From: Candidatus Lustribacter sp.
Lineage (GTDB): Bacteria; Vulcanimicrobiota; Vulcanimicrobiia; Vulcanimicrobiales; Vulcanimicrobiaceae
Length of the DNA stretch: 64,000 bases
NCBI GenBank assembly: GCA_965277805.1
Contig: OZ255842.1
Location: forward strand, 160,001 to 224,000
Direction of reading: 5' to 3'
This document shows, in pieces, positions 34,883 through 55,980 of the stretch. The notes below the pieces were generated by a model. The model saw only the letters and a program-made list of their open reading frames with translations. It had not been told where the DNA came from and searched no databases. The position numbers were made by a program, and so were the translations under genes. Every line of letters starts with the position of its first letter. Positions within the stretch are counted from its first letter, which is position 1.

Positions 34883-35937
34883 AGCGGCTCGAAGCGGTCG
34901 TTATCATCGCGAGCCTGGCCGCAAGTTCGGCGGCCGTCGCACCGGCAACGGCGGCAGCTTTAACGATAAAAGGCAGCGGCTCGACCTTGATGTATCCCCT
35001 GCTCAATACCTGGACGCAGCAGTATCGCGGAACGTCACCCGGCGTGCGCGTTACGGTCGCGGCAACGGGTTCGGGCGCCGGCATCAAAGCGGCGATTACC
35101 GGAGCGGTGCAGTTCGGCGCATCGGATGCGTATATGACCGACGATCAAATGGCTGCGAACCCCGGCATGCTGAACATTCCGCTTGCGATCTCCTCGCAGC
35201 TGATCGCTTACAACGTGCCGGGCCTCAACCTCACTTCATTGAAGCTCGACGGTCCGACGCTGGCCGGCATTTACACCGGCTCGGTGCGGACATGGGACGC
35301 GCCGTCGATCGTCGCGATGAATCCCGGCGTGAAGCTGCCGCATCAAGACATCATCGCGATCCACCGCAACGACAGCTCCGGCGATTCGTTCATCTTCAGC
35401 CAGTATCTGACGTTCTCGACCGACTCGTGGGAAGACGGCCCGAGCTTCGGAACCGACGTTGCGTGGCCGGCCATTTCCAACGCGAAGGGCGCAACCGGCA
35501 ACGACGGCATGGTGAAGACGCTCGCGGCCACGCCGTACGGGATCGCCTACGTAGGCGGCAGTTTCTTCGGCCAAGTTGCGGGAGCGCATCTCGGTACGGC
35601 GATGCTGCGAAATCAAGCCGGCAACTTCGTCTCGCCCAAGCCCCGCAACGTGCGGGTGGCTGCGGCCGCACTCGATACGCGCACGCCGAAGGACGAACGG
35701 CTGAGCCTCGTCTTCGCTCCGGGCGCCGACTCCTATCCGCTGGTCAACTACGAATATGCGATCGTGGCGGCCAAACAACCCGATCCGGCAACAGCCGCGG
35801 CACTGCGCAACTTTCTGTTGTGGACGATCGACGACGGTCACGGCAACGATCAGAAATTGCTCGACCCGTTGCATTTCGCAACGTTGCCGGAAGCGGTGCG
35901 CGCGCTGAGCGACGCGCAGATCCGTAAAATCGGCTGA
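34879..35937 (+). CDS. pstS: Phosphate-binding protein PstS
   Basis: GSGSTLMYP; TGSGAGI; FGASDAY; HRNDSSGDSFIF; GATGNDG; YPLVNYEY. GTG start overlaps the MFS stop. Confidence 0.92.
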   Translation: MKRLEAVVIIASLAASSAAVAPATAAALTIKGSGSTLMYPLLNTWTQQYRGTSPGVRVTVAATGSGAGIKAAITGAVQFGASDAYMTDDQMAANPGMLNIPLAISSQLIAYNVPGLNLTSLKLDGPTLAGIYTGSVRTWDAPSIVAMNPGVKLPHQDIIAIHRNDSSGDSFIFSQYLTFSTDSWEDGPSFGTDVAWPAISNAKGATGNDGMVKTLAATPYGIAYVGGSFFGQVAGAHLGTAMLRNQAGNFVSPKPRNVRVAAAALDTRTPKDERLSLVFAPGADSYPLVNYEYAIVAAKQPDPATAAALRNFLLWTIDDGHGNDQKLLDPLHFATLPEAVRALSDAQIRKIG

Positions 35938-35940
35938 GAC

Positions 35941-37503
35941 TTGGATCTCAGCCGGCGTAAACTGCTCGCCTCCGCCGGCATCGTCGCGGTTGCCGCGTCG
36001 CTCGGCGTTGCGGAAGAAGCGGAGGCTGCGGTTGCTGTTCGACCCGCGAACGATCCGCTCGTTCCGCCCGTGCACGGGCTGCACTTGCAGTTCGGAGCGC
36101 ATGCGGCCTCGGAGATGGTCGTGTCCTGGCACGCGCTGCAAGCCGTCCGCCATCCGCGCGTTTTGCTGGGACGGCGCAACGGTGCGCTCGTGCGAACAAC
36201 GGTTGCCGAAGAATCGACCTACACCGACGCCAAGAGCGGGCAGATCGTCCACACGTATCACGCGAAGCTGACGGGCTTGCAGCCCGGCTCCGCCTATCTC
36301 TATGCGGCGCTGCACGACGGGGCGGAGCCGGAATTCGGGACGTTCCGCACCGTGGCACGCGGACGCGTGCCGCTGACGTTCACGAGCTTCGGCGATCAAG
36401 GGACGCCGACGCTCGGCAAACGCTACGTCCCGCCGCCGGGCGTGGTGATGCCGAATCCGCCATACGTGAATGACAATCTGGGCGGCCCGGCCGGCAGCGA
36501 CACTACCCTCGGCGTCGAGCGCCTGCGGCCGGCGTTTCATCTTTTCAACGGCGATCTCTGTTACGCCAACCTCGCCGACGACCGCGTGCGCACGTGGTGG
36601 GACTTCTGGACGAACAACAGCCGCAGCGCACGTAACCGACCGTGGATGCCTTCTCCGGGCAATCACGAGAACGAACTCGGCAACGGCCCGATCGGCTATC
36701 GCGCCTACCAGACGTATTTCTCGTTACCCCCGGCCGCAGGGCAGACGCCGGTGACGCGCGGGTTGTGGTACTCGTTCACGGCCGGCTCGATGCGCGTGAT
36801 CAGCATCGCCAACGACGACATTGTCTACCAGGACGGCGGCAACACGTACGTACGCGGCTATTCCGGCGGTGCGCAGAAAGCGTGGCTGGAACGCGAATTG
36901 GCGGCGGCTCGGCATGACCGGAACATCGACTGGATCGTCGTCTGCATGCATCAGGTCGCGATCTCGAGCGTCGATCAGTTCAACGGCGCCGACCTCGGGA
37001 TCCGTGAGGAATGGCTGCCGCTGTTCGACCGCTACGGCGTCGATTTGGTCGTGTGCGGACACGAGCATCACTACGAGCGCTCGCATCCGATTCGTGGCCG
37101 GCAATCCAACGCCACCCTCACGCCGATTCCGGTGGCGACCGCAACCGATGTGATCGATACGACCGAAGGCACCGTGCACATGGTGATCGGCGGCGGCGGG
37201 ACCTCGTCACCGTCAAATCAGCTGTTCTTCGATCCGCCGGGCTGCCGCGTGATCACCGCGGTTGCGGCGACGCGCGATCCGGCCACCGGCAAACGGGCGC
37301 CGGTCTATGTAAAAGAAGACGCGCCGTGGTCGGCCGTTCGCAATGCCGCGCATTCGTACGGTTTCGCGGCATTCCGGCTCGATCCGGGATCGCGCCCCGG
37401 CGGCAACACGACGATTACGGTGACCTATTACGACGTCGTCGGCAGCAACGGCGCGATCGCGCCCTTCGAGACGTTCATACTGCGCCGTCCCCGCCGCGAC
37501 TAG
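35941..37503 (+). CDS. Tat-exported purple acid phosphatase-like metallophosphoesterase
   Basis: SRRKLL Tat signal; FGDQG; NGDLCYAN; PGNHENE; VCMHQ; CGHEHHYER. Confidence 0.9.
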   Translation: MDLSRRKLLASAGIVAVAASLGVAEEAEAAVAVRPANDPLVPPVHGLHLQFGAHAASEMVVSWHALQAVRHPRVLLGRRNGALVRTTVAEESTYTDAKSGQIVHTYHAKLTGLQPGSAYLYAALHDGAEPEFGTFRTVARGRVPLTFTSFGDQGTPTLGKRYVPPPGVVMPNPPYVNDNLGGPAGSDTTLGVERLRPAFHLFNGDLCYANLADDRVRTWWDFWTNNSRSARNRPWMPSPGNHENELGNGPIGYRAYQTYFSLPPAAGQTPVTRGLWYSFTAGSMRVISIANDDIVYQDGGNTYVRGYSGGAQKAWLERELAAARHDRNIDWIVVCMHQVAISSVDQFNGADLGIREEWLPLFDRYGVDLVVCGHEHHYERSHPIRGRQSNATLTPIPVATATDVIDTTEGTVHMVIGGGGTSSPSNQLFFDPPGCRVITAVAATRDPATGKRAPVYVKEDAPWSAVRNAAHSYGFAAFRLDPGSRPGGNTTITVTYYDVVGSNGAIAPFETFILRRPRRD

Positions 37504-37561
37504 CGCACGCTCGCGGGGCAGGAAACCGCGCTTGCTTCCTCAAGCCCGTGCGTGAGCAATC

Positions 37562-38659
37562 ATGGACGCCACACTACCGGCAATCGGCCAAGCAGCATTT
37601 CGCGCGTTCTTCGTGTACGATGTCGCGGATACGATCGATCTTGGTTTGCTGCAAACCGTTCGCGGAGCCGGGGTGACGCGCGCGCCGCTGCAACTGCGGC
37701 GTGAGGCCAGCTCTGAATTTATACAATATCCCGTCGCCCCGCTGATCGTCCGCCTGCCCGACTTGGAAGAATACGGCGCCAGCGTCCGGGCGAAAATCTT
37801 CGACTTCGGCGTGGTGTCGATCCGCATCAGCGTGCGATACGACGGCGAGTGGGCCGGATTTGCGGAGCTCGGGCGAAAACTGCGGCGTGACGACCGTTTC
37901 GAGACCCTGGCGCGGGCGACGCTCGAAGACGTGCTGACGGAAATTCGTCCGGCCTTGGTCGAACCGCACACCGTGCTCGTCGAAGATTACTTCGTCTTCG
38001 ATGTCGCGCGCTTCGAACCGCAGATCGACGCGGGCCAGCTCTCCGGCACCTTCGCAGGCGATCTCGCGAAGCTGTTGCTGTTTGAAGTCGAGCCGCTCGA
38101 GTCGCGTCAGCAAGACGAAGCGCTGCGCGTCGCGCTCTCGTATTTTCCCGACGACCTCGTCGTCGTCCAGTGGGACGCCGCGTTCGTCTACGACCGGCCC
38201 GATGGCGCCGAAGCCATCATCGATATCCTCGAGTACGCGAACGCGCAGCTAGTGGAGTTTCGGACCTACGATGCGCGGCTCGACGACGAGCTCGACGCGA
38301 TCTACGCGCTGCAGCCCGGTCGCCGCGAGCGGCGGCATCTGCGTGGCAGAGAGCCGGCGGAGCGGGCCGACCGCGTGCGCTTCCTGCTGGTGGACATCCT
38401 CGAACTCACCGATCGCACGGCCAACGCCCTCAAAGTGATCGGCGATGCGTACTACGCCCGCCTCTATCGCGCGGCGGCGGGACGTCTCGGCCTCGCCGAC
38501 TGGCAAGGTCAAATCGATGCCAAGCTGCGCAGCGTATCCGAGATCTACCGCGTCTATCAGGATCAGGCGCAGTATGCGCGCAGCGAATTTCTCGAGATCG
38601 TCATCATCGTGCTCATCGCCATTGAGGCTGTGATCGGCGTTCTCGCATTGCGCCATTGA
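37562..38659 (+). CDS. Conserved hypothetical protein (RMD1/DUF155-like, C-terminal TM helix)
   Basis: FDFGVVSIR; ILEYANAQLVEFRTYDARLD; GDAYYARLY; RSEFLEIVIIVLIAIE. Confidence 0.7.
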   Translation: MDATLPAIGQAAFRAFFVYDVADTIDLGLLQTVRGAGVTRAPLQLRREASSEFIQYPVAPLIVRLPDLEEYGASVRAKIFDFGVVSIRISVRYDGEWAGFAELGRKLRRDDRFETLARATLEDVLTEIRPALVEPHTVLVEDYFVFDVARFEPQIDAGQLSGTFAGDLAKLLLFEVEPLESRQQDEALRVALSYFPDDLVVVQWDAAFVYDRPDGAEAIIDILEYANAQLVEFRTYDARLDDELDAIYALQPGRRERRHLRGREPAERADRVRFLLVDILELTDRTANALKVIGDAYYARLYRAAAGRLGLADWQGQIDAKLRSVSEIYRVYQDQAQYARSEFLEIVIIVLIAIEAVIGVLALRH

Positions 38660-38679
38660 GAAGGCGTACTTACGGAGAC

Positions 38680-39321
38680 TTACTCGCGCGCGTATATGAT
38701 GATTGAGAGATAGGTCATCGGAAGCTTGCGCAAGTCCTCGGGTCCGTGCGGCGCCGATGCATCGAAAAAGAGCGAATCGCCCCTTTTTAGCACGTACGTT
38801 TTGTCGGCATGCCGGTATCCGACCTCACCGGTGAGCATGTAGATAAACTCGACGCCCTGGTGTTGAAAAATGGGATACGGATCGGCGTCGTCGCTCAGGG
38901 TGATGAGATAGGGTTCTACGGCAATTTCGCTTTTGACCGAATGGCCGAGGAGCTGATAGAGGTGGCCTGAACTCGTCCCGCGCCGTTCAATTGGAAGACC
39001 CTTCCCAGCTCGAACGTATGTGGCGTCATGCTTCTCGTCGAACTTGGCAAAAAACGTTCCGATGGGAACGTTGAGCGCACGCGCGAGTGCCTGCAAGGTT
39101 GCAAGTGAAGCCGAGGTCCCGCCATTTTCAATTTTGGACAACATACCGATCGACAACTCGGCCTGCGTCGCCAAGTCCAAAACCGTCATGTCGTTTTTCT
39201 TACGCAGGGCGCGAACTTGACTACCGATGGCAGCTTCGAGCGATTGGCTCTCCGAGGGGCGCGCCCCGCTTTCGGTCCCTATCCGCGCGCCCGGCTTCGG
39301 TCCGGCTTTGTTCGATCGCAT
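38680..39321 (-). CDS. XRE-family HTH + cupin transcriptional regulator
   Basis: IGSQVRALRKK...LSIGMLSKIENG; FQHQGVEFIYMLTG; GDSLFFDASAPHGP. Confidence 0.92.
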   Translation of the reverse strand: MRSNKAGPKPGARIGTESGARPSESQSLEAAIGSQVRALRKKNDMTVLDLATQAELSIGMLSKIENGGTSASLATLQALARALNVPIGTFFAKFDEKHDATYVRAGKGLPIERRGTSSGHLYQLLGHSVKSEIAVEPYLITLSDDADPYPIFQHQGVEFIYMLTGEVGYRHADKTYVLKRGDSLFFDASAPHGPEDLRKLPMTYLSIIIYARE

Positions 39322-39378
39322 CAGCGCCTCCGTTCCAGCATCCGCTAGGATGTTGGACGGAGGCTGCGATTTACCGGC

Positions 39379-40890
39379 TTAGGACGCGATCTCCTCGGGC
39401 TCCTCGGCGTGGATCACGATCGACTTAGGCGAGGTGCCGTAGCGGCTTCCGATATCCTCGAGGTCCGCCTCGATCTTGCGCATCACGTCGCCCGAGCCGT
39501 TCTTGCGAATGAAGAGCCACCCCACACCGATCGCCAAATAGATTGCGAATGCATACGGGAAGTAGCGTACCGGCGGATCCGGCATCGGATAAAAGCTGCC
39601 GACGATCGGAATGAGCAGAAACAACAGCGCGAGAGCGGAAAGCACCAGTGCGCTGGGCGTCAATATGCCGTTCTTCCTAAGGTACACGGGCGCGGCGATC
39701 GCAATCAGGACGTATCCGATGATGAACCCGTAGGACGACAGCGTTCCGCCGTCATTGAGCAGATCGACGGGCCCGAGGCCCCAGACTTTCATGCAGATGA
39801 AACCGATGGCGAGTGCGATCCCGGCGCACCACGAGACCGATACGTGCGGTGTCGCGTTCACCTTGTGGGTTTCGCCGACGGACGAATGGAGCAGACCGTG
39901 CCGGCTCATGGAGAACAAGACGCGGCAGCCGGCGGTGAAGCTCGCTAGCGTGCAACCGAACGCGCTTACGAGAACCATGACCAGCAGGACCGGGGCAGCC
40001 CAGCCGACGCCGGCAAATTTAGCCATGACGCCCAGGGTGTCGGCGTTACCATCCAGCGTTGTGTGTGTCGCGGCGAAGGCGCCCAACATTCCAAAGCTGC
40101 TCACGGTGTAAAACAGGCACGCGATGACGACGGCGCCGATGACGGCCCGTGGAATCGTCTTGAGCGGATTTTTGGCTTCCTCGCCGAGTGTACTCGAGCT
40201 TTCGAAGCCGATGTCGGCGAAAATCGCTAAGACGAGTCCCAGCGAGAGCCCGCCGAACGAAAAGCCTTGAAGCGTCAATTGGGGAATGTAGAAGTGGAAC
40301 GGGACCTTCACCAAAACCACGGCTAAGAGAATTGCAATCAGCGCCATGCCGCTGAATTCAAGAATGAGCATCAATTTCGTCGACAGGCGGATGTCGCGAT
40401 AGGCGATATACCACGGCACGAGAATCGCGATGGCGTACGTGACGTATGGCCAGATCGCCCCCTTCGGCGATCCGGCTAAAAGCAGCATGAAATTGGCGGC
40501 TGCGCCGGCGAGCGCAATGCCGCAGCCGACGTAGGCAACCAGCCATCCCCACCCGACCATGACGCCCCACGTCGGGCCCAGTCCCATCGTCGTGTACGAA
40601 TACAGTGAACCCGGGGATGCTGATCGCCGCGCGAACTGATTGACGTTCATGCCGACGAGGATGAGTCCGACGCCGGTAAGCAGGTAGGCGAGCCACGTCG
40701 CGTTCCCGGCCGACACAAAGACCAGCGGGATGATGGCAGCCATCGATGCTGACGGTGCGATGACGGCGACCGATTGGGACAATACTTCAAATTGAGACAG
40801 GCAACGTTTTCGTAATCCGTAGTTGCCTGAATGGTGATCACCATCCGTATTCGAGATAGCATCGGATCGCACAACGTTGATCGTGGCCAT
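39379..40890 (-). CDS. APC family amino acid/amine permease
   Basis: About 12 TM; QFARRSASPGSLYSY; GFESSSTLGEEAKNPLKTIPRA; RVLFSMSRHG. Confidence 0.9.
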   Translation of the reverse strand: MATINVVRSDAISNTDGDHHSGNYGLRKRCLSQFEVLSQSVAVIAPSASMAAIIPLVFVSAGNATWLAYLLTGVGLILVGMNVNQFARRSASPGSLYSYTTMGLGPTWGVMVGWGWLVAYVGCGIALAGAAANFMLLLAGSPKGAIWPYVTYAIAILVPWYIAYRDIRLSTKLMLILEFSGMALIAILLAVVLVKVPFHFYIPQLTLQGFSFGGLSLGLVLAIFADIGFESSSTLGEEAKNPLKTIPRAVIGAVVIACLFYTVSSFGMLGAFAATHTTLDGNADTLGVMAKFAGVGWAAPVLLVMVLVSAFGCTLASFTAGCRVLFSMSRHGLLHSSVGETHKVNATPHVSVSWCAGIALAIGFICMKVWGLGPVDLLNDGGTLSSYGFIIGYVLIAIAAPVYLRKNGILTPSALVLSALALLFLLIPIVGSFYPMPDPPVRYFPYAFAIYLAIGVGWLFIRKNGSGDVMRKIEADLEDIGSRYGTSPKSIVIHAEEPEEIAS

Positions 40891-41011
40891 GGCGTCACTC
40901 CGGGAATTCAGGTGATTGGCGCTAAGTTTACGCTGCGTGTGCGCTTCATCAAACTTGCAAATGCGGAACGTATCTACTTATATATACGCCGTTTGGCCGA
41001 CTTTCTCGTCA

Positions 41012-41060
41012 GGAAACTTAGTTTCCGCGCATTGACTATGACGCGATGCCGCGCTACAGT
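41012..41060 (+). promoter_or_regulatory. Sigma70-type promoter of the mgs operon with an upstream palindrome
   Basis: GGAAACT-T-AGTTTCC palindrome (41012-41026), then TTGACT (41032-41037)-17 nt-TACAGT (41055-41060). Confidence 0.6.
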
Positions 41061-41098
41061 ACCCGGAGACGCGCCGGATTTGGAGCTAATGTTATTTT

Positions 41099-41998
41099 AT
41101 GTGTGGGATCGTTGGAATTTTCTTGAAAGAAGAGCGCCTGAATGCTGACCTCGGCGAGCTCTTGGCGCCGATGCTGCTCTCGATGTCGGAGCGCGGACCG
41201 GACAGCGCCGGCTTTGCCGTTTATGGTACGGGCGCGGACGGGATACGAAAAATGACGCTACACAGCAGTGGGGATGCCTCGCTCGAAAATATTGCCGCCG
41301 ACATCGCGCTCGGCGGCGGCTGCGCCGTTACTGCGACCGTTCGCGGAAATCACTGCGTTCTTGCGGTTGCTGAAGCCGATGTCGACCGCACGGTCGTCTG
41401 GCTTCGCGAGATGCGACCCGAGTTGAACATCACCTCGATCGGCCGGAGCATAGAGATTTATAAAGATACCGGCTTGCCGGGCGAGGTCTGCGATCGCTTC
41501 GGGCTACGCGCGATGCACGGCACCCATGCCATCGGCCACACCCGGATGGCGACCGAGTCGGCGGTCACGACCGACGGCGCGCACCCGTTTTCGACCGGGC
41601 CCGATCAGTGTCTGGTCCACAACGGCTCGCTCTCCAATCACAACTCGCTCCGCCGCAGCCTCATGCACGACGGCCTGCAGTTTCGCACGGAAAACGATAG
41701 CGAGGTTGCGGCGGCATATCTCTCGTGGCGCATGCGACAGGGGTTGAACCTCGGCGGAGCGCTCGAGGCTGCGCTCGCTGACCTCGATGGTTTCTACACC
41801 TTCGTCGTTGGGACGGAGACGGGCTTCGGCGTCTTACGCGATCCGGTCGCATGTAAACCGGCCGTTATGGCGGAGACGGATGCATACGTTGCCTTCGGCT
41901 CCGAATATCGCGCGCTCGCCGCCCTGCCCGGCATCGAACGAGCACGCGTTTGGGAACCCGATCCCGCCACCGTCTATTTTTGGGAGCGCGCCGCTTAG
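41099..41998 (+). CDS. mgsA: N-methylglutamate synthase subunit A (class II glutamine amidotransferase, GlxB)
   Basis: MCGIVG; RGPDSAG; GHTRMATESAVT; HNGSLSNH; TENDSEV; RDPVACKPAV; operon context. Confidence 0.88.
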   Translation: MCGIVGIFLKEERLNADLGELLAPMLLSMSERGPDSAGFAVYGTGADGIRKMTLHSSGDASLENIAADIALGGGCAVTATVRGNHCVLAVAEADVDRTVVWLREMRPELNITSIGRSIEIYKDTGLPGEVCDRFGLRAMHGTHAIGHTRMATESAVTTDGAHPFSTGPDQCLVHNGSLSNHNSLRRSLMHDGLQFRTENDSEVAAAYLSWRMRQGLNLGGALEAALADLDGFYTFVVGTETGFGVLRDPVACKPAVMAETDAYVAFGSEYRALAALPGIERARVWEPDPATVYFWERAA

Positions 41999-42709
41999 GT
42001 GCGCGTGCATCCGCTGCCGCAGGCGCACGTCGCCGACTTGGAGGCGATTCCGGTGCGCCTCCTCAACGCCGCGCTGCATCAGCAGAGCGTGCTGCCGGCG
42101 ATCGAGCGCTGGCGTATCGTGAAGCCGATGGGAAGACATGCGATTGCTTGCGGTCTCGATGCCGACATCGACGTCGAAATTGAGGGGCACGTCGGCTATT
42201 ACTGCGCCGGGATGAACAAGCGCGCGACCGTTCGTATCAACGGAAACGCCGGCGTGGGTCTGGCCGAGAACATGATGTCGGGTCAGGTCACCGTTCGCGG
42301 AGATGCAAGCCAGTCGGCCGGTGCAAGCGGACATGGCGGTCTTCTAATCGTCGGCGGAAACGCCAGCGCGCGATGCGGAATTTCGATGAAGGGCATCGAC
42401 ATCGTCGTTGGAGGTAACGTCGGCCACATGAGTGCCTTCATGGCCCAAGCCGGAAATCTCGTGGTTCTCGGTGACGCGGGCGAGGCGCTCGGCGACTCGA
42501 TCTACGAAGCCCGCATCTTCGTGCGCGGAGCGGTGAAGAGTTTGGGGGCTGATTGCATCGAGAAACCGATGACCGCGCAGCACCTCATGGCCTTGGGCGA
42601 ATTGCTCGAACGCAGCGGTTACGGCAACATCGAGCCCGCGGCATTTCGCCGCTTCGGTTCCGCGCGCCGGCTCTATAACTTCCATGTCGAGAATGTGGGG
42701 GCATACTGA
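41999..42709 (+). CDS. mgsB: N-methylglutamate synthase subunit B (GXGXG domain, GlxC)
   Basis: GHVGYYCAGMN; AENMMSG; ARCGISMKG; GHMSAFMAQAG; LGDSIYEA; GSARRLYNF. Confidence 0.9.
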   Translation: MRVHPLPQAHVADLEAIPVRLLNAALHQQSVLPAIERWRIVKPMGRHAIACGLDADIDVEIEGHVGYYCAGMNKRATVRINGNAGVGLAENMMSGQVTVRGDASQSAGASGHGGLLIVGGNASARCGISMKGIDIVVGGNVGHMSAFMAQAGNLVVLGDAGEALGDSIYEARIFVRGAVKSLGADCIEKPMTAQHLMALGELLERSGYGNIEPAAFRRFGSARRLYNFHVENVGAY

Positions 42710-44037
42710 TGATCGAGCGGTCGCGCTGGATTCACACCGAACCCATCGAGTCGGCCACCTTTAGCGCCGCCGCGCTGGCGGAGATCCGCCGCGCAGCGGC
42801 AACCGGCATTTACGACATCCGTGGCGGGGGCGCCAAGCGTCCGGTGCCGCACTTCGACGATCTGCTCTTCCTAGGGGCGAGCGTTTCGCGATATCCGTTG
42901 GAAGGCTATCGTGAGCGTTGCGGCACCGATGTGACGCTCGGCGCCCGCTTCGCAAAGAACCCGATTCATCTCAAGATTCCGATTACGATCGCCGGCATGA
43001 GTTTTGGCGCGCTCTCATTGCAGGCGAAAGAGGCACTCGGCCGCGGCGCCACGGCGGCGGGAACCAGCACGACGACGGGCGACGGCGGAATGACGGCAGA
43101 AGAACGCGAGCATTCGCAGACGCTCGTTTATCAGGTGCTGCCGTCGCGGTACGGCCTGAACCCGGACGACCTGCGCAGAGCCGATGCGATCGAAGTCGTC
43201 ATTGGCCAAGGCGCGAAGCCGGGCGGCGGCGGGATGCTTTTGGGCCAGAAAGTGACCGAGCGTGTCGCCGCGATGCGGACGCTGCCGGCCGGAATCGATC
43301 AGCGATCGGCATCGAGACACCCCGACTGGACCGGTCCCGATGATTTGGAAATCAAAATCATCGAACTGCGCGAGATCACGGATTGGGAAAAGCCGATCTT
43401 CGTCAAGATCGGAGCGAGCCGTCCGTACTACGATACCTCGCTTGCGGTAAAGTCCGGTGCCGACGTGATCGTGATCGATGGTATGCAAGGCGGCACGGCA
43501 GCAACGCAAAACGCGTTTATCGAAAACGTCGGTATTCCGACCTTAGCCGCGATTCGGCCGGCGGTCCAAGCGCTACAAGAACTCGGGCTTCATCGGAAGG
43601 TGCAGTTGATCGTATCCGGCGGTATCCGAACGGGCGCAGATGTTGCGAAAGCGCTTGCACTTGGTGCCGATGCGGTTTCGATCGGTACCGCAGCGCTCGT
43701 TGCGCTCGGTGAAAACGATCCGGCATATGAAGAAGAATACCGTGCGCTCGGCACGACGGCAGCGGCCTACGACGACTGGCATGAGGGTCTCGACCCGGCC
43801 GGCATTACGACGCAACGGCCCGAGCTCGCGCAACGGCTCGATCCCGTCCTCGCAGGCCGGCGCCTCGCGAATTATCTGGGCGTCCTTACCCTTGAAACGC
43901 AAGCGATCGCCCGTGCCTGCGGAAAGTCGCACGTTCACAATCTGGAACCGGAAGATCTTGTCGCGCTAACGATCGAGGCGGCGGCGATGGCGCGCGTTCC
44001 GTTGGCCGGCACTGATTGGATTCCGGGTCGAATCTAA
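42709..44037 (+). CDS. mgsC: N-methylglutamate synthase subunit C (FMN-binding glutamate synthase-like, GlxD)
   Basis: SRYPLEGYRE; IAGMSFGALS; GQGAKPGGGGMLLGQK; RHPDWTGPDDL; DGMQGGTAATQ. Confidence 0.9.
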   Translation: MIERSRWIHTEPIESATFSAAALAEIRRAAATGIYDIRGGGAKRPVPHFDDLLFLGASVSRYPLEGYRERCGTDVTLGARFAKNPIHLKIPITIAGMSFGALSLQAKEALGRGATAAGTSTTTGDGGMTAEEREHSQTLVYQVLPSRYGLNPDDLRRADAIEVVIGQGAKPGGGGMLLGQKVTERVAAMRTLPAGIDQRSASRHPDWTGPDDLEIKIIELREITDWEKPIFVKIGASRPYYDTSLAVKSGADVIVIDGMQGGTAATQNAFIENVGIPTLAAIRPAVQALQELGLHRKVQLIVSGGIRTGADVAKALALGADAVSIGTAALVALGENDPAYEEEYRALGTTAAAYDDWHEGLDPAGITTQRPELAQRLDPVLAGRRLANYLGVLTLETQAIARACGKSHVHNLEPEDLVALTIEAAAMARVPLAGTDWIPGRI

Positions 44038-44039
44038 GA

Positions 44040-45341
44040 ATGGATCTTGAAGCCAAGGCCGTCGAGCTCGGCATCGACTACTTTCTGATTTGCTTCGCGG
44101 ACCTGGCCGGGACACCACGCTCGAAACTCGTCCCGCGCGAGGCGATCAATGGCATGGCAAAGACCGGCGCAGGCTTTGCCGGGTTTGCAACGTGGCTCGA
44201 CATGACGCCGGCGGACCCCGATCTCTTCGCCATCCCCGATCCGGAAAGCCTCATTCAGCTCCCGTGGAAGAAAGAGGTCGGGTGGCTTGCGGCCGACCCG
44301 TGGATGAACGGTGCGCCGATCGAGCATGCGCCGCGAAATCTTCTCAAGCGGGTGATTGCGCGCGCCGCCGCCGCCCGGCTTCAAATGAAGACCGGCGTCG
44401 AATGCGAGTACTTTCTCATCGCGCCCTCGGGCGAAGCCATCTCCGACCTCGCCGACGTGCAAGCCAAGCCGTGCTACGATCAGCAAGCGCTCATGCGCCG
44501 TTACGATGTGATTACCGAAATTTGCGACGCAATGCGCACGCTCGGCTGGAAGCCGTATCAGAACGATCACGAAGACGCAAACGGCCAGTTCGAGATGAAC
44601 TGGCTCTACGACGATGCCCTCAAGACGGCCGATCGTCATTTGTTCTTCAAATACATGACGAAGTCGATCGCCGAGAAGCATGCCATGCGTGCGACCTTCA
44701 TGCCGAAACCGTTTACCCATCTGACGGGAAACGGTTGCCACACGCACGTTTCAGTGTGGGACATGGATTCGGCGGCGAACCTCTTCGAGGATCCGGCGGG
44801 CGAACTTGGGCTCTCCGAACTCGCCTATCGCTTCATCGGCGGCGTCATGCATTCGGCCGACGCGTTGTGCGCCATTACGAATGGGACGATCAACTCCTAT
44901 AAGCGCATCAATGCTTCCATCACCCTTTCGGGCGCCACCTGGTCGCCGAACACCATATCCTATTCCGGCAACAATCGCACGCACATGATTCGGATTCCGG
45001 AGCCCGGCCGGTTCGAGTTTCGCCTTCCCGACGGCGCTGCCAACCCGTATCTTTTGCAGGCCGGCATCCTCTCGGCCGGACTAGATGGCATCGAAAATGC
45101 GCGCGATCCCGGCAAGCGCCTCGACATCAACATGTACGTCGACGGGCACCAAGCCGGCGACGTCCGCACGCTGCCGCAGAACTTGCTCGATGCGACGCGC
45201 GCTTTTGAGACATCTGGCGTGCTCAGGTCGATGCTCGGAGACGAGTTCATTACGGCATATGCTCGCCACAAGCACGCTGAATGGCGTGGCTTCCACCAGC
45301 ATCTCACCGAGTGGGAGTGCCGGACCACTCTCGATTGCTGA
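44040..45341 (+). CDS. gmaS: Gamma-glutamylmethylamide synthetase (GlnT-type glutamine synthetase homolog)
   Basis: GAGFAGFATW; KPCYDQQALMRRYD; YQNDHEDANGQFEMN; SGATWSPN; GNNRTHMIR; DGAANPYL; ends TTLDC. Confidence 0.9.
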   Translation: MDLEAKAVELGIDYFLICFADLAGTPRSKLVPREAINGMAKTGAGFAGFATWLDMTPADPDLFAIPDPESLIQLPWKKEVGWLAADPWMNGAPIEHAPRNLLKRVIARAAAARLQMKTGVECEYFLIAPSGEAISDLADVQAKPCYDQQALMRRYDVITEICDAMRTLGWKPYQNDHEDANGQFEMNWLYDDALKTADRHLFFKYMTKSIAEKHAMRATFMPKPFTHLTGNGCHTHVSVWDMDSAANLFEDPAGELGLSELAYRFIGGVMHSADALCAITNGTINSYKRINASITLSGATWSPNTISYSGNNRTHMIRIPEPGRFEFRLPDGAANPYLLQAGILSAGLDGIENARDPGKRLDINMYVDGHQAGDVRTLPQNLLDATRAFETSGVLRSMLGDEFITAYARHKHAEWRGFHQHLTEWECRTTLDC

Positions 45342-45348
45342 CGCGCCG

Positions 45349-46488
45349 ATGATTTACGACGCGATCGTCGTCGGACTCGGCGGAATGGGCAGCAGCGCGC
45401 TCGCGCATGCCGCCGGCCGCGGAATGCGCGTTCTCGGTCTCGAGCGATTCGGCCGCGTTCACGATCTCGGCTCGTCGGCGGGCCGCTCGCGAATCATTCG
45501 CCAAGCGTATTTTGAAGACGCAGCATACGTACCGCTCGTGCAGCACGCATACGATCGCTGGCGAGAATTGGAACGCGCGACCGGTCTACCGATACTCAAC
45601 CTCACCGGCGTGCTGCTCGTCGGCACGCCGCAACACGATTCGGTCGTCAATGCGCGCGCAAGCGCCATCACGCACGGCTTGCCGTTCGAAGAGTTGGACG
45701 CCGGGGAGATTGCGCGCCGTTATCCCTCCTTTGCCCCCCGCAGCGACGAAATCGGGATTTTCGAGGCCAACGCCGGGTTCGTCATTCCCGAAACGGCCAT
45801 CGAGGGCTATCTGCGCGTCGCACATCAAGCGGGAGCTGAGATGCGGTTCGATACGCCGCTCAAGAAATGGCGTGCGACGTCAAGCGGCACGTTTATCGTC
45901 GAGGCCGGCGACGAATCGATGTACGAAACGCGGCGGCTCGCTCTATGCATGGGAGCATGGTTCGAATCGGTTGCAGCAGAGATCGGTATTCCGATCGTTA
46001 TTGAGCGGCGCGTTCAGCACTGGTTCGCCCAAGCAGATGGCGCGCTCGGACCGGCCCAGGTGCCCACGTTTCTCGTCGACCGCGTCGAGCAGCCGTCGCG
46101 CATGTACGGGTTCCCCAATGTTGGCGACGGAGTCAAAGCAGCGTTTCATGCCATCGGCGAGGCGACGCACGCAGACGACTTGGATCGCATCGTGCACGAG
46201 TCCGATATCGAACCCCTGCGCGTGGCGCTCGAGGCGTGGCTCCCGGGGTCGACGGCACGGTACGCCGGCGGAAAGGTGTGCATGTACAGCCTCACACCGG
46301 ACGAACACTTCGTGCTCGGACGACATCCGCATTATACCGGCGTTGTGCTCGCCGGCGGTTTCTCCGGTCACGGCTTCAAATTCGCCTCTGCGATCGGTGA
46401 CGTGATCGCCGATTTGCTCGCTGACGGAGTGACGGGTCGCGACATCGCCTTTCTGTCGCCCGAGCGGTTTACGCCGCAACCTTGCTGA
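45349..46488 (+). CDS. solA: Monomeric sarcosine oxidase / N-methyltryptophan oxidase-like flavoprotein
   Basis: YDAIVVGLGGMGS; GSSAGRSRIIRQAYFE; VCMYSLTPDEHF (covalent-FAD Cys position); GFSGHGFKF. Confidence 0.88.
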   Translation: MIYDAIVVGLGGMGSSALAHAAGRGMRVLGLERFGRVHDLGSSAGRSRIIRQAYFEDAAYVPLVQHAYDRWRELERATGLPILNLTGVLLVGTPQHDSVVNARASAITHGLPFEELDAGEIARRYPSFAPRSDEIGIFEANAGFVIPETAIEGYLRVAHQAGAEMRFDTPLKKWRATSSGTFIVEAGDESMYETRRLALCMGAWFESVAAEIGIPIVIERRVQHWFAQADGALGPAQVPTFLVDRVEQPSRMYGFPNVGDGVKAAFHAIGEATHADDLDRIVHESDIEPLRVALEAWLPGSTARYAGGKVCMYSLTPDEHFVLGRHPHYTGVVLAGGFSGHGFKFASAIGDVIADLLADGVTGRDIAFLSPERFTPQPC

Positions 46489-46945
46489 TCGACACTTCGA
46501 GGAGTGCGTTGAGCGCGGCGAGCGTTTCATGGCCGAGCAACGTGGCCATCTGCGTCTCGGCGCTTTGCCAGAGCGGGGCGGCAGCGAGATATTTCTTGCG
46601 ACCGCTCGGGGTGATCGCCACGGCCCGCACGCGCCGGTCGCGCGGATCGCGGGCGTCTTTGACCCAGCCTTCGGCGACGAGCGGTTTGAGGTTGCGCGTG
46701 AGGGTCGTCGGGTCCATGCCGCGCGCGTGGGCGAGCGTGCCGATCGCGATTCCGCCGCTTTCGCCCGGCCCGGCCGTCGCCAGATAGGCGAGCAGGCCGA
46801 ACTGGCCGATCGTGAGGCCCGCCGGTTCGAGCGCCTGGTCGTAGAGCTGCGTGACGTGCCGGCCGGCTCGCCGGATGCGTGAACACGTGCAATTACGGAG
46901 TTCACGAGTCGACGGTTTTTCAACGTCGGTAGCGGTTTTCGGCAT
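46469..46945 (-). CDS. MarR family transcriptional regulator
   Basis: CTCSRIRRAGRHVTQLYD; MDPTTLTRNLKPL; DRRVRAVAITPSG. Confidence 0.9.
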   Translation of the reverse strand: MPKTATDVEKPSTRELRNCTCSRIRRAGRHVTQLYDQALEPAGLTIGQFGLLAYLATAGPGESGGIAIGTLAHARGMDPTTLTRNLKPLVAEGWVKDARDPRDRRVRAVAITPSGRKKYLAAAPLWQSAETQMATLLGHETLAALNALLEVSISKVAA

Positions 46946-46947
46946 GG

Positions 46948-46979
46948 TTGACACCCATGATAGCATGCATATACAGCTA
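46948..46979. promoter_or_regulatory. Divergent marR/MATE promoter with imperfect palindromic operator
   Basis: TTGACA at 46948-46953; TAGC-ATGCATATACA-GCTA near-palindrome at 46961-46979. Confidence 0.5.
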
Positions 46980-47002
46980 AATCAACCGCCGAAAGACGTG
47001 TT

Positions 47003-48424
47003 ATGCAGGCGACCGCGCCAAATACCCCGCCCGACGCCCCTAACGTCCGGCAACTCGCCCACGCCGGCGACGCCAAGACCCGCATGCGCCATGCGATGGA
47101 GCACGGGCCGATCGTTGCGACGATGTTCCGGCTCGCGTTGCCGACGGTCTCCGTGCTCGTTATCCAAACGCTCGTCTCCGTCGCCGAGACGTTTTACGTC
47201 AGCTTTCTCGGCACGACGGCGATCGCGGGCGTCTCGCTCGTGTTCCCGGTCGTCATGCTGATGACGATGATGTCCAACGGCGGCATCGGCGCCGGCGTGT
47301 CGTCTGCGGTCGCGCGTGAAATCGGCGCCGGGCGGCAGAAGGCCGCCGACGCGCTGCTGCTGCACGCGATCGTTCTGGCCGTGGTCTTGGGGTTATTGTT
47401 CACGGCCGGAGCGCTCGTGCTCGGGCCGGATCTCTACCGCAGCCTCGGCGGTCACGGTCCCATTCTCACGGCGGCGCTCACCTACTCGGGCTTTCTGTTC
47501 GTCGGTGCGGTTCCGATTTGGCTCGTCAACCTCATCGCCTCTGCATTGCGCGGTGCGGGCGACGTGAAGGTGCCGGCGCTGGTCACGCTTGCGGGCGCGA
47601 TGATCCTGATTCCGTTGTCGCCGGCGTTCATCTTCGGCTTCGGGCCGCTGCCGCGCATGGGCGTGGCGGGCGCGGGCATCGCGGTCTGCACCTATTACGT
47701 CGTTGCGAGCATCGTCTTGGTGGCTTACCTCGCCTCCGGCCGCGCGACGCTGATCTTGCGCATCGCGCCGCTGCAGTGGCGGCTCTTCGGCTTGATCCTC
47801 GGCGTCGGGTTGCTGGCCGCGGTCGGAACGCTGCAGACGAACATTACCGTTGTTCTGTTAACCGGTGCGGCCGGCTCGTTCGGAACGGCGGCGCTGGCCG
47901 GCTACGGGATCGCGTCGCGCTTGGACTATCTCCTCATCCCGCTGATGTTTGGGATTGGCGCGGCCGTGCTGACGATGGTGGGCACGAACGTCGGCGCCGG
48001 AAAGGCCGAGCGCGCGCGCCGTATCGCGTGGGTCGGCGCAGCCGGCGGCTTTCTCTTGACCGGGGCGATCGGCGCCACTGTCGCGCTCTTTCCGCATGCG
48101 TGGCTCGGGCTCTTCACGCACGACGCCGCCGTCGTCGCCACGGGCACGCTGTACTTGCGGATCGTGGCGCCGTTCTACGCGCTCTACGGCGCCGGTTTTA
48201 TCCTGTACTTCGCATGTCAAGGCGCGGGCCGCATCGTGTGGCCGTTCCTGGCGGGAACCGTTCGGCTTTTGGTGAGCGCCGGATTGGGCTGGCTCGCGGT
48301 CATGCACTACACCGCCGGCATCAACACGCTCTTCGCCGCCATCGCCGCCGGCTCGCTGATCTACGGCGCCCTCATCATCGCGTACGTCGCGCTCTCGCCG
48401 CGTTGGGAGCGGGCATTGGTATAG
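47003..48424 (+). CDS. MATE family efflux transporter
   Basis: GPIVATMFRLALP; ALRGAGDVKVP; AGYGIASRLDY; VGTNVGAG. Confidence 0.92.
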   Translation: MQATAPNTPPDAPNVRQLAHAGDAKTRMRHAMEHGPIVATMFRLALPTVSVLVIQTLVSVAETFYVSFLGTTAIAGVSLVFPVVMLMTMMSNGGIGAGVSSAVAREIGAGRQKAADALLLHAIVLAVVLGLLFTAGALVLGPDLYRSLGGHGPILTAALTYSGFLFVGAVPIWLVNLIASALRGAGDVKVPALVTLAGAMILIPLSPAFIFGFGPLPRMGVAGAGIAVCTYYVVASIVLVAYLASGRATLILRIAPLQWRLFGLILGVGLLAAVGTLQTNITVVLLTGAAGSFGTAALAGYGIASRLDYLLIPLMFGIGAAVLTMVGTNVGAGKAERARRIAWVGAAGGFLLTGAIGATVALFPHAWLGLFTHDAAVVATGTLYLRIVAPFYALYGAGFILYFACQGAGRIVWPFLAGTVRLLVSAGLGWLAVMHYTAGINTLFAAIAAGSLIYGALIIAYVALSPRWERALV

Positions 48425-48457
48425 GACCCCGTTTCTCGCGGCGCGTACTTCCCGGGC

Positions 48458-49486
48458 ATGAAGGCCATCGCGTTTCTCCTCGCGTTGCTGCTCTTGCCGA
48501 TGTCGAGCGCTGCGCAGACCGGAACGCCGGCGCCGTCGACGACGCTGAAGGTCCTCATCAGTCCGGGTCTCATCTTTCTGTTGCCGCTCGAGGCCGGCAT
48601 CGAGCGCGGCGTGTTTGCGCAGCAGGGCATCACCGTCGTACCGGTGATCCACAGCGGCTCGAGCCAATCGATCATCCCGTCGCTAGCTCGCGGCGATGTC
48701 GACGTCGCCGCGATCTCGCCGAGCCCGGCCTTTTTCAACCAGTTCTCGGAGGGCTTCGACGCGAAGCTCGTTGCATCGACGATTGCCAGTCATAAGGGCT
48801 GGAATCCGACGATGTGGCTCGTCGTGAAGCAAACCGATTGGGATAACCGGACGATTCGCAACCCGCGCGATCTGCGCGGCAAGCACATCGACGGCATGTC
48901 GGCCGGCAGCGAAGGCTGGTATCTGGCGCGGCACGTGATGACGAACGCCGCGCTGCAGCCTTCGGACATGACGTTCACGTCGCGCTTCTCGACCGCGGCC
49001 GATTGGGTGATGTCGCTGCGCAACGTCAACGACGTGCAGGCGGCATTCGAGCCGACCGTCACGCAACTCGAGCAGCTGCATCTCGGCCACCGCTGGATCT
49101 CGATTGCCGACCTCGATCCGCAGTACACGGAGAGCTTCTTGGGCGTCTCGGCCGCGACGCTCAAAGCGCGGCCCGACGTCATCCGGCGTTTTTTGATCGG
49201 CTACATCAACGCCTGCAAGTACGTGCTGAGCAGCAATGGCAAGTGGACGCCCGAACTCGTGCGCATTTTTTCCAAGTGGTCGGGGCTGACGCCGGACGTC
49301 GTCGCGGCGATTCCGACGCCGCCGTATACCGGCGCGTTCGGACGAATCAACACGGCCGATCTCGAACAGATTCAGCGCTTTTGGCATACGATGGGTCTGG
49401 TCCCGACCGAGCAGAGCATCGATACGCTCGTCGATACGAGCCTCATCATGCAAGCGCAGAAGGGCGCGGGCGTTGTCCCACATTAG
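48458..49486 (+). CDS. NMT1/SsuA-like ABC substrate-binding protein
   Basis: Signal peptide; ERGVFAQQGITV; LARGDVDVA; DLRGK; PDVIRRFL. Confidence 0.82.
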   Translation: MKAIAFLLALLLLPMSSAAQTGTPAPSTTLKVLISPGLIFLLPLEAGIERGVFAQQGITVVPVIHSGSSQSIIPSLARGDVDVAAISPSPAFFNQFSEGFDAKLVASTIASHKGWNPTMWLVVKQTDWDNRTIRNPRDLRGKHIDGMSAGSEGWYLARHVMTNAALQPSDMTFTSRFSTAADWVMSLRNVNDVQAAFEPTVTQLEQLHLGHRWISIADLDPQYTESFLGVSAATLKARPDVIRRFLIGYINACKYVLSSNGKWTPELVRIFSKWSGLTPDVVAAIPTPPYTGAFGRINTADLEQIQRFWHTMGLVPTEQSIDTLVDTSLIMQAQKGAGVVPH

Positions 49487-50366
49487 TCACCGCGACGACG
49501 TCCCGTTTCCGCCCGACTCAAACCCGAACGCCCCCAATTTCAGCGTTCCGGGCGGAAGCTGGGATACGCACTTCCATCTCTACGGACCGCCGAACCATTT
49601 TCCGTATGCCGACACGCGCCTGTTCACGCCGCCCGCGGCGCCGTTCGAACACTGGCAGCGCATCTCGGCCGCGATCGGGATCGCGCGCGGGGTCGCCGTC
49701 ACGCCGGGCATTCACGGCTACAACAACGACGTGACGCTCGACGCGGTCGAACGTTCTGAAGGCCGCGTGCGCGGCGTGATCCGCGCGAACGCCGCGCTCA
49801 CGGCGCAAGACATCGCCGCACTGCACAAGCGCGGCGTGCGCGGCGTGCGCTTCACGTTTGCCGAACATCTCGGGCAGAAATTCGACGTGCAGCTCTTGCA
49901 GACGGCCCTCGCGCGCATCGAGCCTTGCGGATGGGTCATGCAATTTCTCATCGATGGGGACGCGATCGAGCGGCACGCCGATGTGGTCGCCGGCTTGCCG
50001 TTGCCGGTCGTGCTCGACAGCTTTGCCGGGATCACGGCGGGACGCGGGCTCGATCAGCCTGCCGTGCGCGCGCTCTTCGATCTGCTCGCCCGCCCCAACA
50101 TCTACGTGAAGCTGATGTGCGCGGATCGCGAACTCGATGCCGGCGAACGCTACGAGAATATCGTCGGGCTCGCGCAAGCGATTATCGCCCGGGCGCCGGA
50201 TCGCGTCATGTGGGGGTCCGACTGGCCGCACTCCTACCTCTACGAGGCCAATCGCGTTCCGAACGACGGCGATCTGCTGAGCATGCTCTCGGACTTTGCG
50301 CCCGACGAGGCGGTGCGGAAAAAGATTCTCGTCGACAACCCGGTGCGCGTGTTCGACTTCGATTAA
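49473..50366 (+). CDS. Amidohydrolase, 2-pyrone-4,6-dicarboxylate lactonase (LigI)-like
   Basis: WDTHFHLYGP; GVRGVRF; PDRVMWGSDWPH; ILVDNPVRVF. Confidence 0.82.
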   Translation: MSHISHRDDVPFPPDSNPNAPNFSVPGGSWDTHFHLYGPPNHFPYADTRLFTPPAAPFEHWQRISAAIGIARGVAVTPGIHGYNNDVTLDAVERSEGRVRGVIRANAALTAQDIAALHKRGVRGVRFTFAEHLGQKFDVQLLQTALARIEPCGWVMQFLIDGDAIERHADVVAGLPLPVVLDSFAGITAGRGLDQPAVRALFDLLARPNIYVKLMCADRELDAGERYENIVGLAQAIIARAPDRVMWGSDWPHSYLYEANRVPNDGDLLSMLSDFAPDEAVRKKILVDNPVRVFDFD

Positions 50367-54822: not shown

Positions 54823-54849
54823 AACCGCGCTAGCGATCGCGCGGTCTCA

Positions 54850-55980
54850 GTGACCGTGTCTCGTCTTTTCTCTTCTTACCAAATGCGCGATGTGACGCTG
54901 CGCAATCGAATCGTCGTCTCGCCGATGTGCGAATATTCATCGATCGACGGCTTCGCGAATGATTGGCACGTCGTGCACTTGGGTAGTCGCGCCGTGGGCG
55001 GCGCGGCGCTCGTGCTCACCGAGGCGATTGCCGTCACCGCCGAGGGCCGCATTTCGCCGAGCGATCTCGGCATTTGGAAAGACGAGCATATCGAGCAGCT
55101 CGCACGCATCGCCGCGTTTTGCAACAGTCAGGGCGCGGTCTGGGGAACGCAGCTCGCGCATGCCGGGCGCAAGGCCTCAACCAAGGTCACGTGGGAGGGC
55201 GACGGCGCCGTCTCGCCCGCTGACGGGGGCTGGATTCCGGTCGCACCGACGACCGCGCCGTTCAACGACACCTATCCGCGGCCGAGGGCGCTGGAAGAAG
55301 GCGAGATCCTCGCAATCATTCGCGCGTTTGCCGATGCGGCGCGACGTACGCTCGCTGCGGGCGGCGAAGTCATCGAAGTGCACGCGGCGCACGGCTATCT
55401 GATCCACCAGTTTCTTTCGCCGCTCGTCAACACGCGAACCGATCGCTGGGGCGGATCGTTCGAAAACCGCACGCGCCTCGCGCTCGAGACCGTGCGCGCG
55501 ATTCGCGCGGTGTGGCCCGAGCGGCTCCCGCTCTTGGTGCGTTTCTCGTCGACCGATTACGCTGCCGGCGGCTGGGACATCGAGCAAACGGTCGAGCTCT
55601 CACGCATCCTGCGCGGTGAGGGCGTCGATCTGATCGATGCGAGTTCGGGCGGCGCCATCCCGCTGCCGCCGGGCACGATTCCGGTCGGTCCGCTCTATCA
55701 GCTGCCGTTTGCGGAACGCATCCGGCGCGAAGCCGGCATCGCGACCGGCGCCGTCGGCATGATCACGGAGCCCGCCGACGCCGAGGCGATCGTGGCAGAC
55801 GAAAAAGCCGATCTCGTGATCATGGCGCGCGAACTGCTGCGCGATCCGTACTGGCCGCTGTTCGCGGCGCGCCTGCTTGGTGCTAAGGCACCGTGGCCGA
55901 AACAGTATCAGCGCGCCGAGGGTCCGCGGGCATCATTTCGCACTGCGCATATCGCGGACGAACGAAAGGTCCATCACTGA
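54850..55980 (+). CDS. NADH:flavin oxidoreductase / old yellow enzyme (YqjM/NamA-like)
   Basis: NRIVVSPMCEYS; QLAHAGRKAS; HAAHGYLIHQFLSP; GGSFENRTR; ARELLRDPYW. Confidence 0.93.
   Translation: MTVSRLFSSYQMRDVTLRNRIVVSPMCEYSSIDGFANDWHVVHLGSRAVGGAALVLTEAIAVTAEGRISPSDLGIWKDEHIEQLARIAAFCNSQGAVWGTQLAHAGRKASTKVTWEGDGAVSPADGGWIPVAPTTAPFNDTYPRPRALEEGEILAIIRAFADAARRTLAAGGEVIEVHAAHGYLIHQFLSPLVNTRTDRWGGSFENRTRLALETVRAIRAVWPERLPLLVRFSSTDYAAGGWDIEQTVELSRILRGEGVDLIDASSGGAIPLPPGTIPVGPLYQLPFAERIRREAGIATGAVGMITEPADAEAIVADEKADLVIMARELLRDPYWPLFAARLLGAKAPWPKQYQRAEGPRASFRTAHIADERKVHH

Follow-up and report, generated by a model that had tools for sequence, protein, structure and literature searches.

A putative monomeric N-methylglutamate oxidase gene directly after gmaS in a Candidatus Lustribacter genome

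A gmaS operon ending in a single flavoprotein gene

In the canonical N-methylglutamate pathway of methylamine use, described in Methyloversatilis universalis, Methylobacterium extorquens DM4 and Methylocella silvestris, the genes for gamma-glutamylmethylamide synthetase (gmaS), the three-subunit N-methylglutamate synthase (mgsABC) and a heterotetrameric, tetrahydrofolate-linked N-methylglutamate dehydrogenase (mgdABCD) occur together, often with an XRE-type regulator gene adjacent. Through the first two enzymes methylamine nitrogen ends locked in N-methylglutamate, and net nitrogen gain needs demethylation. MgdABCD yields a tetrahydrofolate-bound one-carbon (C1) unit and electrons for the respiratory chain, whereas the products expected of an oxidase at this step are free formaldehyde and H2O2. 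Here we analyze a stretch of 64,000 nt from Candidatus Lustribacter sp. (GenBank assembly GCA_965277805.1, contig OZ255842.1, positions 160,001 to 224,000; hereafter the window), which encodes orthologs of GmaS and the three Mgs proteins in the canonical order (the M. extorquens DM4 layout is given in PMC6237917, in part). Unlike the canonical pathway, this genome lacks a SoxBDAG-like N-methylglutamate dehydrogenase altogether, and a gene for a 379-aa flavin amine oxidase (the solA-like gene, hereafter solA) stands directly after gmaS, where sister lineages have mgdA. Comparative genomics makes it probable, in our judgment, that the block encodes a self-contained, oxygen-dependent and nitrogen-scavenging N-methylglutamate route, in which the SolA-like protein would turn N-methylglutamate into glutamate, formaldehyde and H2O2 independently of tetrahydrofolate.

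Related combinations of genes have been described elsewhere in other arrangements. The SAR11 genome treated by Sun et al. 2011 (PMC3160333, in part) likewise combines glnT/gmaS and glxBCD/mgsABC with a gene for a monomeric sarcosine oxidase. That gene (SAR11_1304) has an aminomethyltransferase and a betaine transporter for neighbors and does not follow gmaS (SAR11_1316), and the genome has two soxBDAG operons, which were proposed as the N-methylglutamate dehydrogenase. The solA gene of Escherichia coli is not beside gmaS or mgs genes, and monomeric sarcosine oxidases belong to creatine or sarcosine catabolism, as opposed to the methylamine-pathway context found here. Within the full-text literature searched, which excludes most subscription journals, no monomeric oxidase was described as the last step of this pathway, and the term "N-methylglutamate oxidase" was not found.

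The sequence-only reading of this DNA had described four tightly packed genes followed 7 nt later by the flavoprotein gene, and the coordinates of the open reading frames bear this out. All five lie on the forward strand. mgsA (41099–41998; 299 aa, starting MCGIVG, with an N-terminal Met-Cys) matches Pfam GATase_6/7 and would encode the class-II glutamine-amidotransferase-type subunit of N-methylglutamate synthase; mgsB (41999–42709; GTG start, 0-nt gap) matches GXGXG at 45.4 bits and would encode the GXGXG subunit; and mgsC (42709–44037), which overlaps mgsB by 1 nt, matches Glu_synthase at 299.9 bits and would encode the FMN (GltB-type) subunit. After a 2-nt gap comes gmaS (44040–45341; 660.7 bits on TIGR03105, cut-off 469.6), and solA (45349–46488) completes the run with a putative monomeric flavin amine oxidase whose VCMY motif occupies residues 310–313. 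A convergent marR-family regulator gene (46469–46966, reverse strand; Pfam MarR_2) overlaps the last 20 nt of solA and flanks the block from outside. Both the flavin-cysteine motif and the convergent marR were thus read correctly, as was the lack of soxBDAG- or mgdABCD-like subunits: no soxB- or soxA-type gene occurs in the window.

By sequence comparison, the ligase of the window is a genuine GmaS. It aligns with the Rhodovulum GmaS structure 7CQL at 634 bits and is identical at the positions of Asp177, Glu186, Arg312 and Trp300, of which the first three are catalytic in the Rhodovulum enzyme and the fourth takes the place of the flap glutamate, a catalytic residue in true glutamine synthetases (PMC7948447, in part). 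The amidotransferase, GXGXG and FMN subunit genes adjoin gmaS in an order that is kept in metagenome gmaS loci, of which we compared 80 (64–73% GmaS identity; the closer protein-database relatives, at 78–95%, are not among them). Homologs of mgsA (53–78% identity) hold the same position there, mgsB is syntenic, and mgsC homologs in loci of the same gene order are 73–88% identical. Two of these loci (L168:13007-17237 and L180:2518-7316) hold, beside an orthologous xre-mgsABC-gmaS set, a second, far more divergent gmaS/mgsABC-like set whose GmaS is 29–32% and whose MgsC is 53–54% identical.

The genome is a single contig of 5,533,281 bp (completeness 95%), all of which was covered by profile searches. 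A search for mgdABCD/soxBDAG over this whole length, as the sequence-only reading had proposed, found none. The best score on the soxB family model (TIGR01373) was 41 bits, indicating no MgdA/SoxB anywhere in the genome, and the best on the soxA family model (TIGR01372) was 145 bits, covering the aminomethyltransferase (GcvT) part only. Glycine oxidase ThiO, L-2-hydroxyglutarate oxidase and GcvT account for the soxA/soxB look-alikes and were rejected as mgd genes. Searching the genome by tblastn with MgdA and MgdC proteins from the metagenome gmaS loci gave at most 29% identity. The SolA-like protein itself is not a SoxB/MgdA, scoring 24 bits on TIGR01373 (cut-off 529) compared with 483–703 bits for true gmaS-adjacent MgdA proteins, and it is the only member of its own family in the genome (E ≤ 1e-20). 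The TIGR01373 scores of gmaS-adjacent MgdA proteins suggest two sub-types (483–505 bits, slightly under the cut-off, and 640–703 bits); the lower-scoring one (L122:3377-4618, L145:5185-6429, L183:3777-5018 and L204:3090-4298, the last from genome G363) would be left unnamed by automatic annotation.

Shared inheritance and presence or absence of the block

Close relatives of both proteins were found in a collection of 5.8 billion proteins, which contained a GmaS group at 78–95% identity and a tight SolA group (P0121–P0145) at 57–92% identity, all remaining SolA matches being at most 57% identical. Nine metagenome contigs, paired by identical size in nt, carry both a GmaS (78–88% identical) and a SolA (67–83% identical): 11,677 nt (P0013 and P0125), 59,172 nt (P0012 and P0130), 23,940 nt (P0245 and P0126), 7,031 nt (P0246 and P0127), 2,711 nt (P0248 and P0128), 5,371 nt (P0011 and P0129), 11,252 nt (P0021 and P0136), 5,458 nt (P0019 and P0138) and 5,837 nt (P0253 and P0254), GmaS being named first in each pair. 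Since the 2,711-nt contig holds genes of 435 and 376 codons, the two must be neighbors there. The pairing procedure was checked on P0144, whose contig of 298,104 nt is equal in size to contig C10 of G305, a genome of the same family, and whose sequence is the SolA of that contig.

Phylogenies of the two proteins point in the same direction. In a GmaS tree of 123 rows (quick IQ-TREE), the window's protein falls in a 16-row clade (SH-aLRT 99) in which all seven rows of known context are linked to solA; a second solA-linked clade of three rows lies nearby, and the sister lineages G363 and L122 are linked to mgd, with mgdA directly after gmaS. The SolA tree, with 74 rows, places every one of the ten linked rows in a single clade of 21 (support 87), where the order of branching matches that of the GmaS proteins paired with them. 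These comparisons indicate that gmaS and solA have been inherited together in one environmental lineage while diverging to 67% (SolA) and 78% (GmaS) identity, and the presence of mgdA after gmaS in the sister GmaS lineages argues for non-orthologous replacement.

Among sequenced genomes the combination is rare. GmaS (E ≤ 1e-60) was found in none of 60 other genomes taken from the levels of genus to class, and in a phylum-wide sample of 400 other genomes only two had one at E ≤ 1e-100, with solA on neither of the two short contigs. In one of these (G363, same family) an MgdA-type gene (483 bits) directly follows gmaS; the second contig does not extend far enough for its context to be read. SolA homologs (42–54% identical) occur in 19 of 36 family genomes, and the genus's seven other genomes have none. 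Three genomes flagged as unpublished (G028, G048 and G059) are counted in these tallies of relatives and enter into no other result.

A same-genus genome, G003, shows the extent of the unit. It aligns to window positions 37481–38661 at 94.9% nucleotide identity and then directly to 46470–49241 at 95.4%, with 2 bp between the flanks (over the whole flank up to 38661, identity is 91–95%). The intervening 7,808 bp (38662–46469) comprise exactly the XRE regulator, a permease, mgsABC, gmaS and solA. G003 keeps marR directly beside the left flank; marR and the MATE gene beyond it are part of the conserved flank. The block has a GC content of 0.608 compared with 0.643 for the genome (4.8th percentile of 708 windows of equal size), and third-position GC (GC3) is 0.66–0.76 in all seven of its genes (0.72 in solA) compared with 0.77–0.87 in flanking genes. 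Neither direct repeats nor an integrase was found at its ends. The position of solA 7 nt after gmaS, inside the same 7.8-kb indel and with the same low GC3, suggests that it was inherited along with the operon.

Metagenome assemblies contain the block at the same site. In run X1, which may be the source of the assembly itself and hence not independent, Logan contigs match 38736–47300 exactly and span the left junction. Of two contigs from X5, a peat metagenome of another study, one (6,580 nt) corresponds to 37894–43395 with 368 differences and places the block at this site, and the other (7,167 nt) corresponds to 43370–47300 with 475 differences (~88% nucleotide identity) and carries mgsC-gmaS-solA-marR-MATE. 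A 4,513-nt contig of X6, a soil metagenome, matches 37894–41566, again with the block at the same site. The block is therefore a presence/absence polymorphism among close relatives; because G003 lacks it and the peat and soil contigs, although more diverged, have it in this position, loss by G003 and gain by the others both fit. Run X1 also holds short contigs that are ~82–88% identical to parts of mgsA, mgsB and gmaS (window 41500–44300), which seem to come from a second related mgs/gmaS set or from a second organism in the sample.

The oxidase and its proposed role

The SolA-like protein belongs to the family of monomeric sarcosine oxidase (MSOX) and N-methyltryptophan oxidase (MTOX), and sequence comparison makes it an ortholog of neither characterized enzyme. 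It passes the profile NF008425 (N-methyl-L-tryptophan oxidase equivalog) at 381.1 bits (cut-off 257) and scores 245.2 bits on TIGR01377 (soxA_mon), under the cut-off of 479.65. Its best structural-database matches are monomeric sarcosine oxidases (Thermomicrobium roseum SOX 7EXS, 248.6 bits, 38%; Bacillus MSOX 1EL5, 211.7 bits, 34%); identity is 38% to T. roseum SOX, 34% to Bacillus MSOX and 32% to E. coli MTOX. An AlphaFold2 model (pLDDT 94.3, pTM 0.92) has a two-domain DAO-type fold of monomer size, which Foldseek superposes on 7EXS and Bacillus MSOX with a TM score of 0.94 and an rmsd of 1.5–1.6 Å, and on E. coli SolA/MTOX (2UZZ) with a TM score of 0.91.

Residues were mapped by aligning the oxidase with 1EL5 (HMMER) and with E. 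coli SolA. R48, R51, Y54, K263, H267, C311, Y313 and K344 of the oxidase align to R49, R52, Y55, K265, H269, C315, Y317 and K348 of MSOX, and the positions of R48, R51, Y54, K259 and H263 of E. coli MTOX align as well. C311, the cysteine of VCMY, also aligns to C308 of the E. coli enzyme and is invariant in 45 of 45 aligned sequences; MSOX Cys315 and MTOX Cys308 are presumably the sites of 8-alpha-S-cysteinyl-FAD attachment. R51, Y54, K344, K263 and H267 are identical to their MSOX counterparts and invariant in the same 45-sequence alignment. In MSOX, Arg52, Tyr55 and Lys348 hold the substrate carboxylate (PMC12582975, in part), and Lys265 and His269 are catalytic (same source and titles of PDB entries). 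With all catalytic residues in place, the predicted enzyme looks active.

Differences from the characterized enzymes concern the substrate pocket. All seven active-site positions given in PMC12582975 (in part) can be aligned, and Arg52, Tyr55, Tyr254, His269 and Lys348 are identical, whereas Leu stands at the Met245 position, the Phe100 region reads Val-Val-Asn, His45 is Ala and Asp47 is Arg; Phe100, Met245 and Tyr254 are known substrate-pocket positions according to the same source. Compared with MTOX, the size-determining pocket residue is Leu242 instead of Thr239, and E219 and R221 take the positions that V216 and K218 have in the E. coli enzyme. Comparing the 25 closest SolA proteins (at least 64% identity, grouped by identity rank) with the next 96 gave 12 clade-specific positions. 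All 25 close proteins have E219 and R221, where 93 of the 96 next-closest have Q and N; N101 stands in place of G, T240 of A or S, S250 of A and M252 of L. N101 adjoins the Phe100 position, T240 is, like L242, on the strand of Met245, Tyr254 (Y253 in the window's protein) has S250 and M252 on its two sides, and E219 and R221 sit on the preceding strand (217–227 in the secondary structure of the model). P0145, only 57% identical to the oxidase, carries the same signature, and the signature sub-clade comprises 27 rows of the SolA tree (SH-aLRT 98). We infer that the surroundings of the pocket have been remodeled with the gain of an arginine, which would fit a substrate that bears two carboxylates.

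The proposed route starts with the permease, which would import the amine. GmaS would then join methylamine to glutamate, giving gamma-glutamylmethylamide (as its match to the solved GmaS and its conserved catalytic residues suggest), and MgsABC, judging from family membership and conserved synteny, would convert this to N-methylglutamate with release of ammonia. Some enzyme must fill the last step, since there is no net nitrogen gain without a demethylating enzyme. N-methylglutamate is the sole pathway intermediate of the N-methyl-alpha-amino-acid shape that this family oxidizes, which makes it the candidate substrate. Action of the oxidase on gamma-glutamylmethylamide was considered and rejected on general chemical grounds, the nitrogen being an amide and not a secondary amine. 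The SolA-like monomer, its flavin predicted to be covalently bound, would oxidize the N-methyl C–N bond of N-methylglutamate to give glutamate, free formaldehyde and H2O2, standing in for the MgdABCD that the genome lacks. Both by-products could be cleared by enzymes encoded in the genome, a glutathione-independent formaldehyde dehydrogenase (fdhA, 740.8 bits, cut-off 637) and a catalase (618.7 bits); glutathione-dependent formaldehyde dehydrogenase reached 256 bits in the genome, under its cut-off. Because such an oxidase conserves no methyl-group energy and makes no folate-bound C1 unit, the block would favor use of methylamine as a nitrogen source rather than methylotrophic growth. The sequence-only reading had likewise proposed a single-subunit, tetrahydrofolate-independent oxidase closing the cycle, and the genomic comparisons lend support to that proposal.

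Several results weigh against this interpretation. None of the 80 metagenome gmaS loci contains a SolA homolog (>80 aa, E ≤ 1e-8), with soxB/soxA-type mgd genes present in 30 of them within the DNA fetched, and neither gmaS nor mgs was found in the 80 closest named-genome SolA loci (at most 51% identical), a survey that left out records close to the window's genome and is uninformative on linkage. Adjacency on eight of the nine paired contigs was deduced from equal contig sizes and not read from DNA. The gmaS–solA arrangement is accordingly not general and is confined to one lineage: linkage, whose absence from relatives would by the sequence-only reading have spoken against its proposal, is conserved in the operon's own lineage, as seen in the nine contigs, the X5 contig and the congruent trees, and is not found in the other 80 gmaS loci. 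The curated model that the oxidase passes bears the name of N-methyltryptophan oxidase. Finally, G305 has a SolA ortholog (64% identical) with the full signature (E-R-R, T, L, S, M) and no gmaS (best match in that genome 28% identical), so the sub-clade is not tied exclusively to the methylamine pathway. That gene (L209, G305:C10:161500-181400, positions 8850–9971, reverse strand) stands with same-direction genes for a family-5 solute-binding protein (peptide, nickel or opine type), a TonB-dependent receptor and an isochorismatase-like hydrolase, and G305 has a genuine soxB (660 bits). The ancestral substrate of the sub-clade may have been an imported N-methylated amino acid, the operon form being a recruitment.

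These observations bear on three other explanations. The SolA-like enzyme might be an oxidase of N-methyl amino acids in general, or of sarcosine, that is simply carried along in the island, N-methylglutamate not being its substrate and the last step being carried out by something unrecognized or not at all. The G305 ortholog in its transporter and hydrolase context, the match to the N-methyltryptophan oxidase profile and the acceptance of several N-methyl amino acids by characterized family members (PMC12582975, in part) are what such an enzyme would lead one to expect; we nevertheless regard this as unlikely, given that the trees are congruent, that linkage is kept down to 67% SolA and 78% GmaS identity, that the gap to gmaS in the window is 7 nt, and that the complete genome offers no other demethylation candidate and no second member of the family. 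Processing of another small primary amine such as ethylamine, with the oxidase cleaving an N-alkylglutamate to glutamate and an aldehyde, appears improbable to us. GmaS enzymes do accept ethylamine (PMC7677707, in part) and the permease may carry other amines, but the window's GmaS closely matches the Rhodovulum methylamine enzyme with identical catalytic residues and clusters with GmaS proteins followed by mgdABCD, as an ortholog and not as a member of the divergent sister module.

That the cluster is a nitrogen-assimilation locus of the older "glnT-glxBCD" type, uninvolved in methylamine use and with an oxidase unrelated to it, seems very improbable. The ligase bears the NCBIfam name "type III glutamate–ammonia ligase", and 50 of the 80 metagenome loci have no mgd gene in the DNA fetched; many of those 50 are too short to judge, however, and the ligase has Trp where true glutamine synthetases have the flap glutamate (PMC7948447, in part). 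We therefore return to N-methylglutamate oxidation as the preferred function, and lean, with less assurance, to a broader proposal: that the Glu219-Arg220-Arg221 sub-clade represents an unrecognized specificity, a monomeric N-methyl-L-glutamate oxidase, which one peat/soil lineage recruited to replace the folate-linked MgdABCD, giving a minimal five-enzyme, oxygen-dependent cassette that is moved or lost as a 7.8-kb block and would convert methylamine to ammonia without C1-carrier machinery.

If correct, this would be the first tetrahydrofolate-independent, H2O2-forming terminal enzyme for the N-methylglutamate pathway, and the block would be a compact means of obtaining nitrogen from methylamine. 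A lineage with one oxidase at the end of the pathway would look incomplete in surveys that count gmaS, mgs and mgd genes to assess methylamine use in soils and oceans. The enzyme would also add a new substrate specificity to a family that already serves in diagnostic assays of sarcosine and creatinine, and an N-methylglutamate-specific oxidase would serve as an analytical enzyme.

Upstream genes and neighboring features

Upstream of mgsA and divergent from it lie the two remaining genes of the block, both on the reverse strand: an XRE-family helix-turn-helix and cupin regulator (38680–39321; 213 aa; Pfam HTH_3 and Cupin_2) and an APC-family permease (39379–40890; 503 aa; Pfam AA_permease_2, TIGR00909). 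Homologs of the regulator (54–68% identity) stand beside mgsABC-gmaS in ~36 of the 80 metagenome loci, and homologs of the permease (33–38% identity) adjoin gmaS in three loci (L124, L144 and L162). The permease is a candidate for the uptake of methylamine or of a different amine. A sigma-70-like promoter match (TTGACT, 17-nt spacer, TACAGT; 41032–41060, forward strand) is found 5' of mgsA; three such matches occur in the region where 2.5 are expected, which is chance level, and its position alone is suggestive. A terminator scan of the region gave matches no better than chance.

A second indel relative to G003 lies to the left of the block. Window positions 33663–37480 (3.8 kb), absent from G003, cover most of an MFS transporter gene (33371–34882) and of a purple-acid-phosphatase-like gene (35941–37503). 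To the right, an amidohydrolase_2 protein (49473–50366) scores 303.6 bits on a 4-sulfomuconolactone hydrolase model (cut-off 500) and follows an NMT1/SsuA-like binding protein. Further on (52264–55980), a stand-alone adenylation/carrier/thioesterase protein of 852 aa, resembling a single module of a nonribosomal peptide synthetase, is followed by an Old-Yellow-Enzyme-type flavin oxidoreductase, with NMT1/THI5-like binding proteins on either side.

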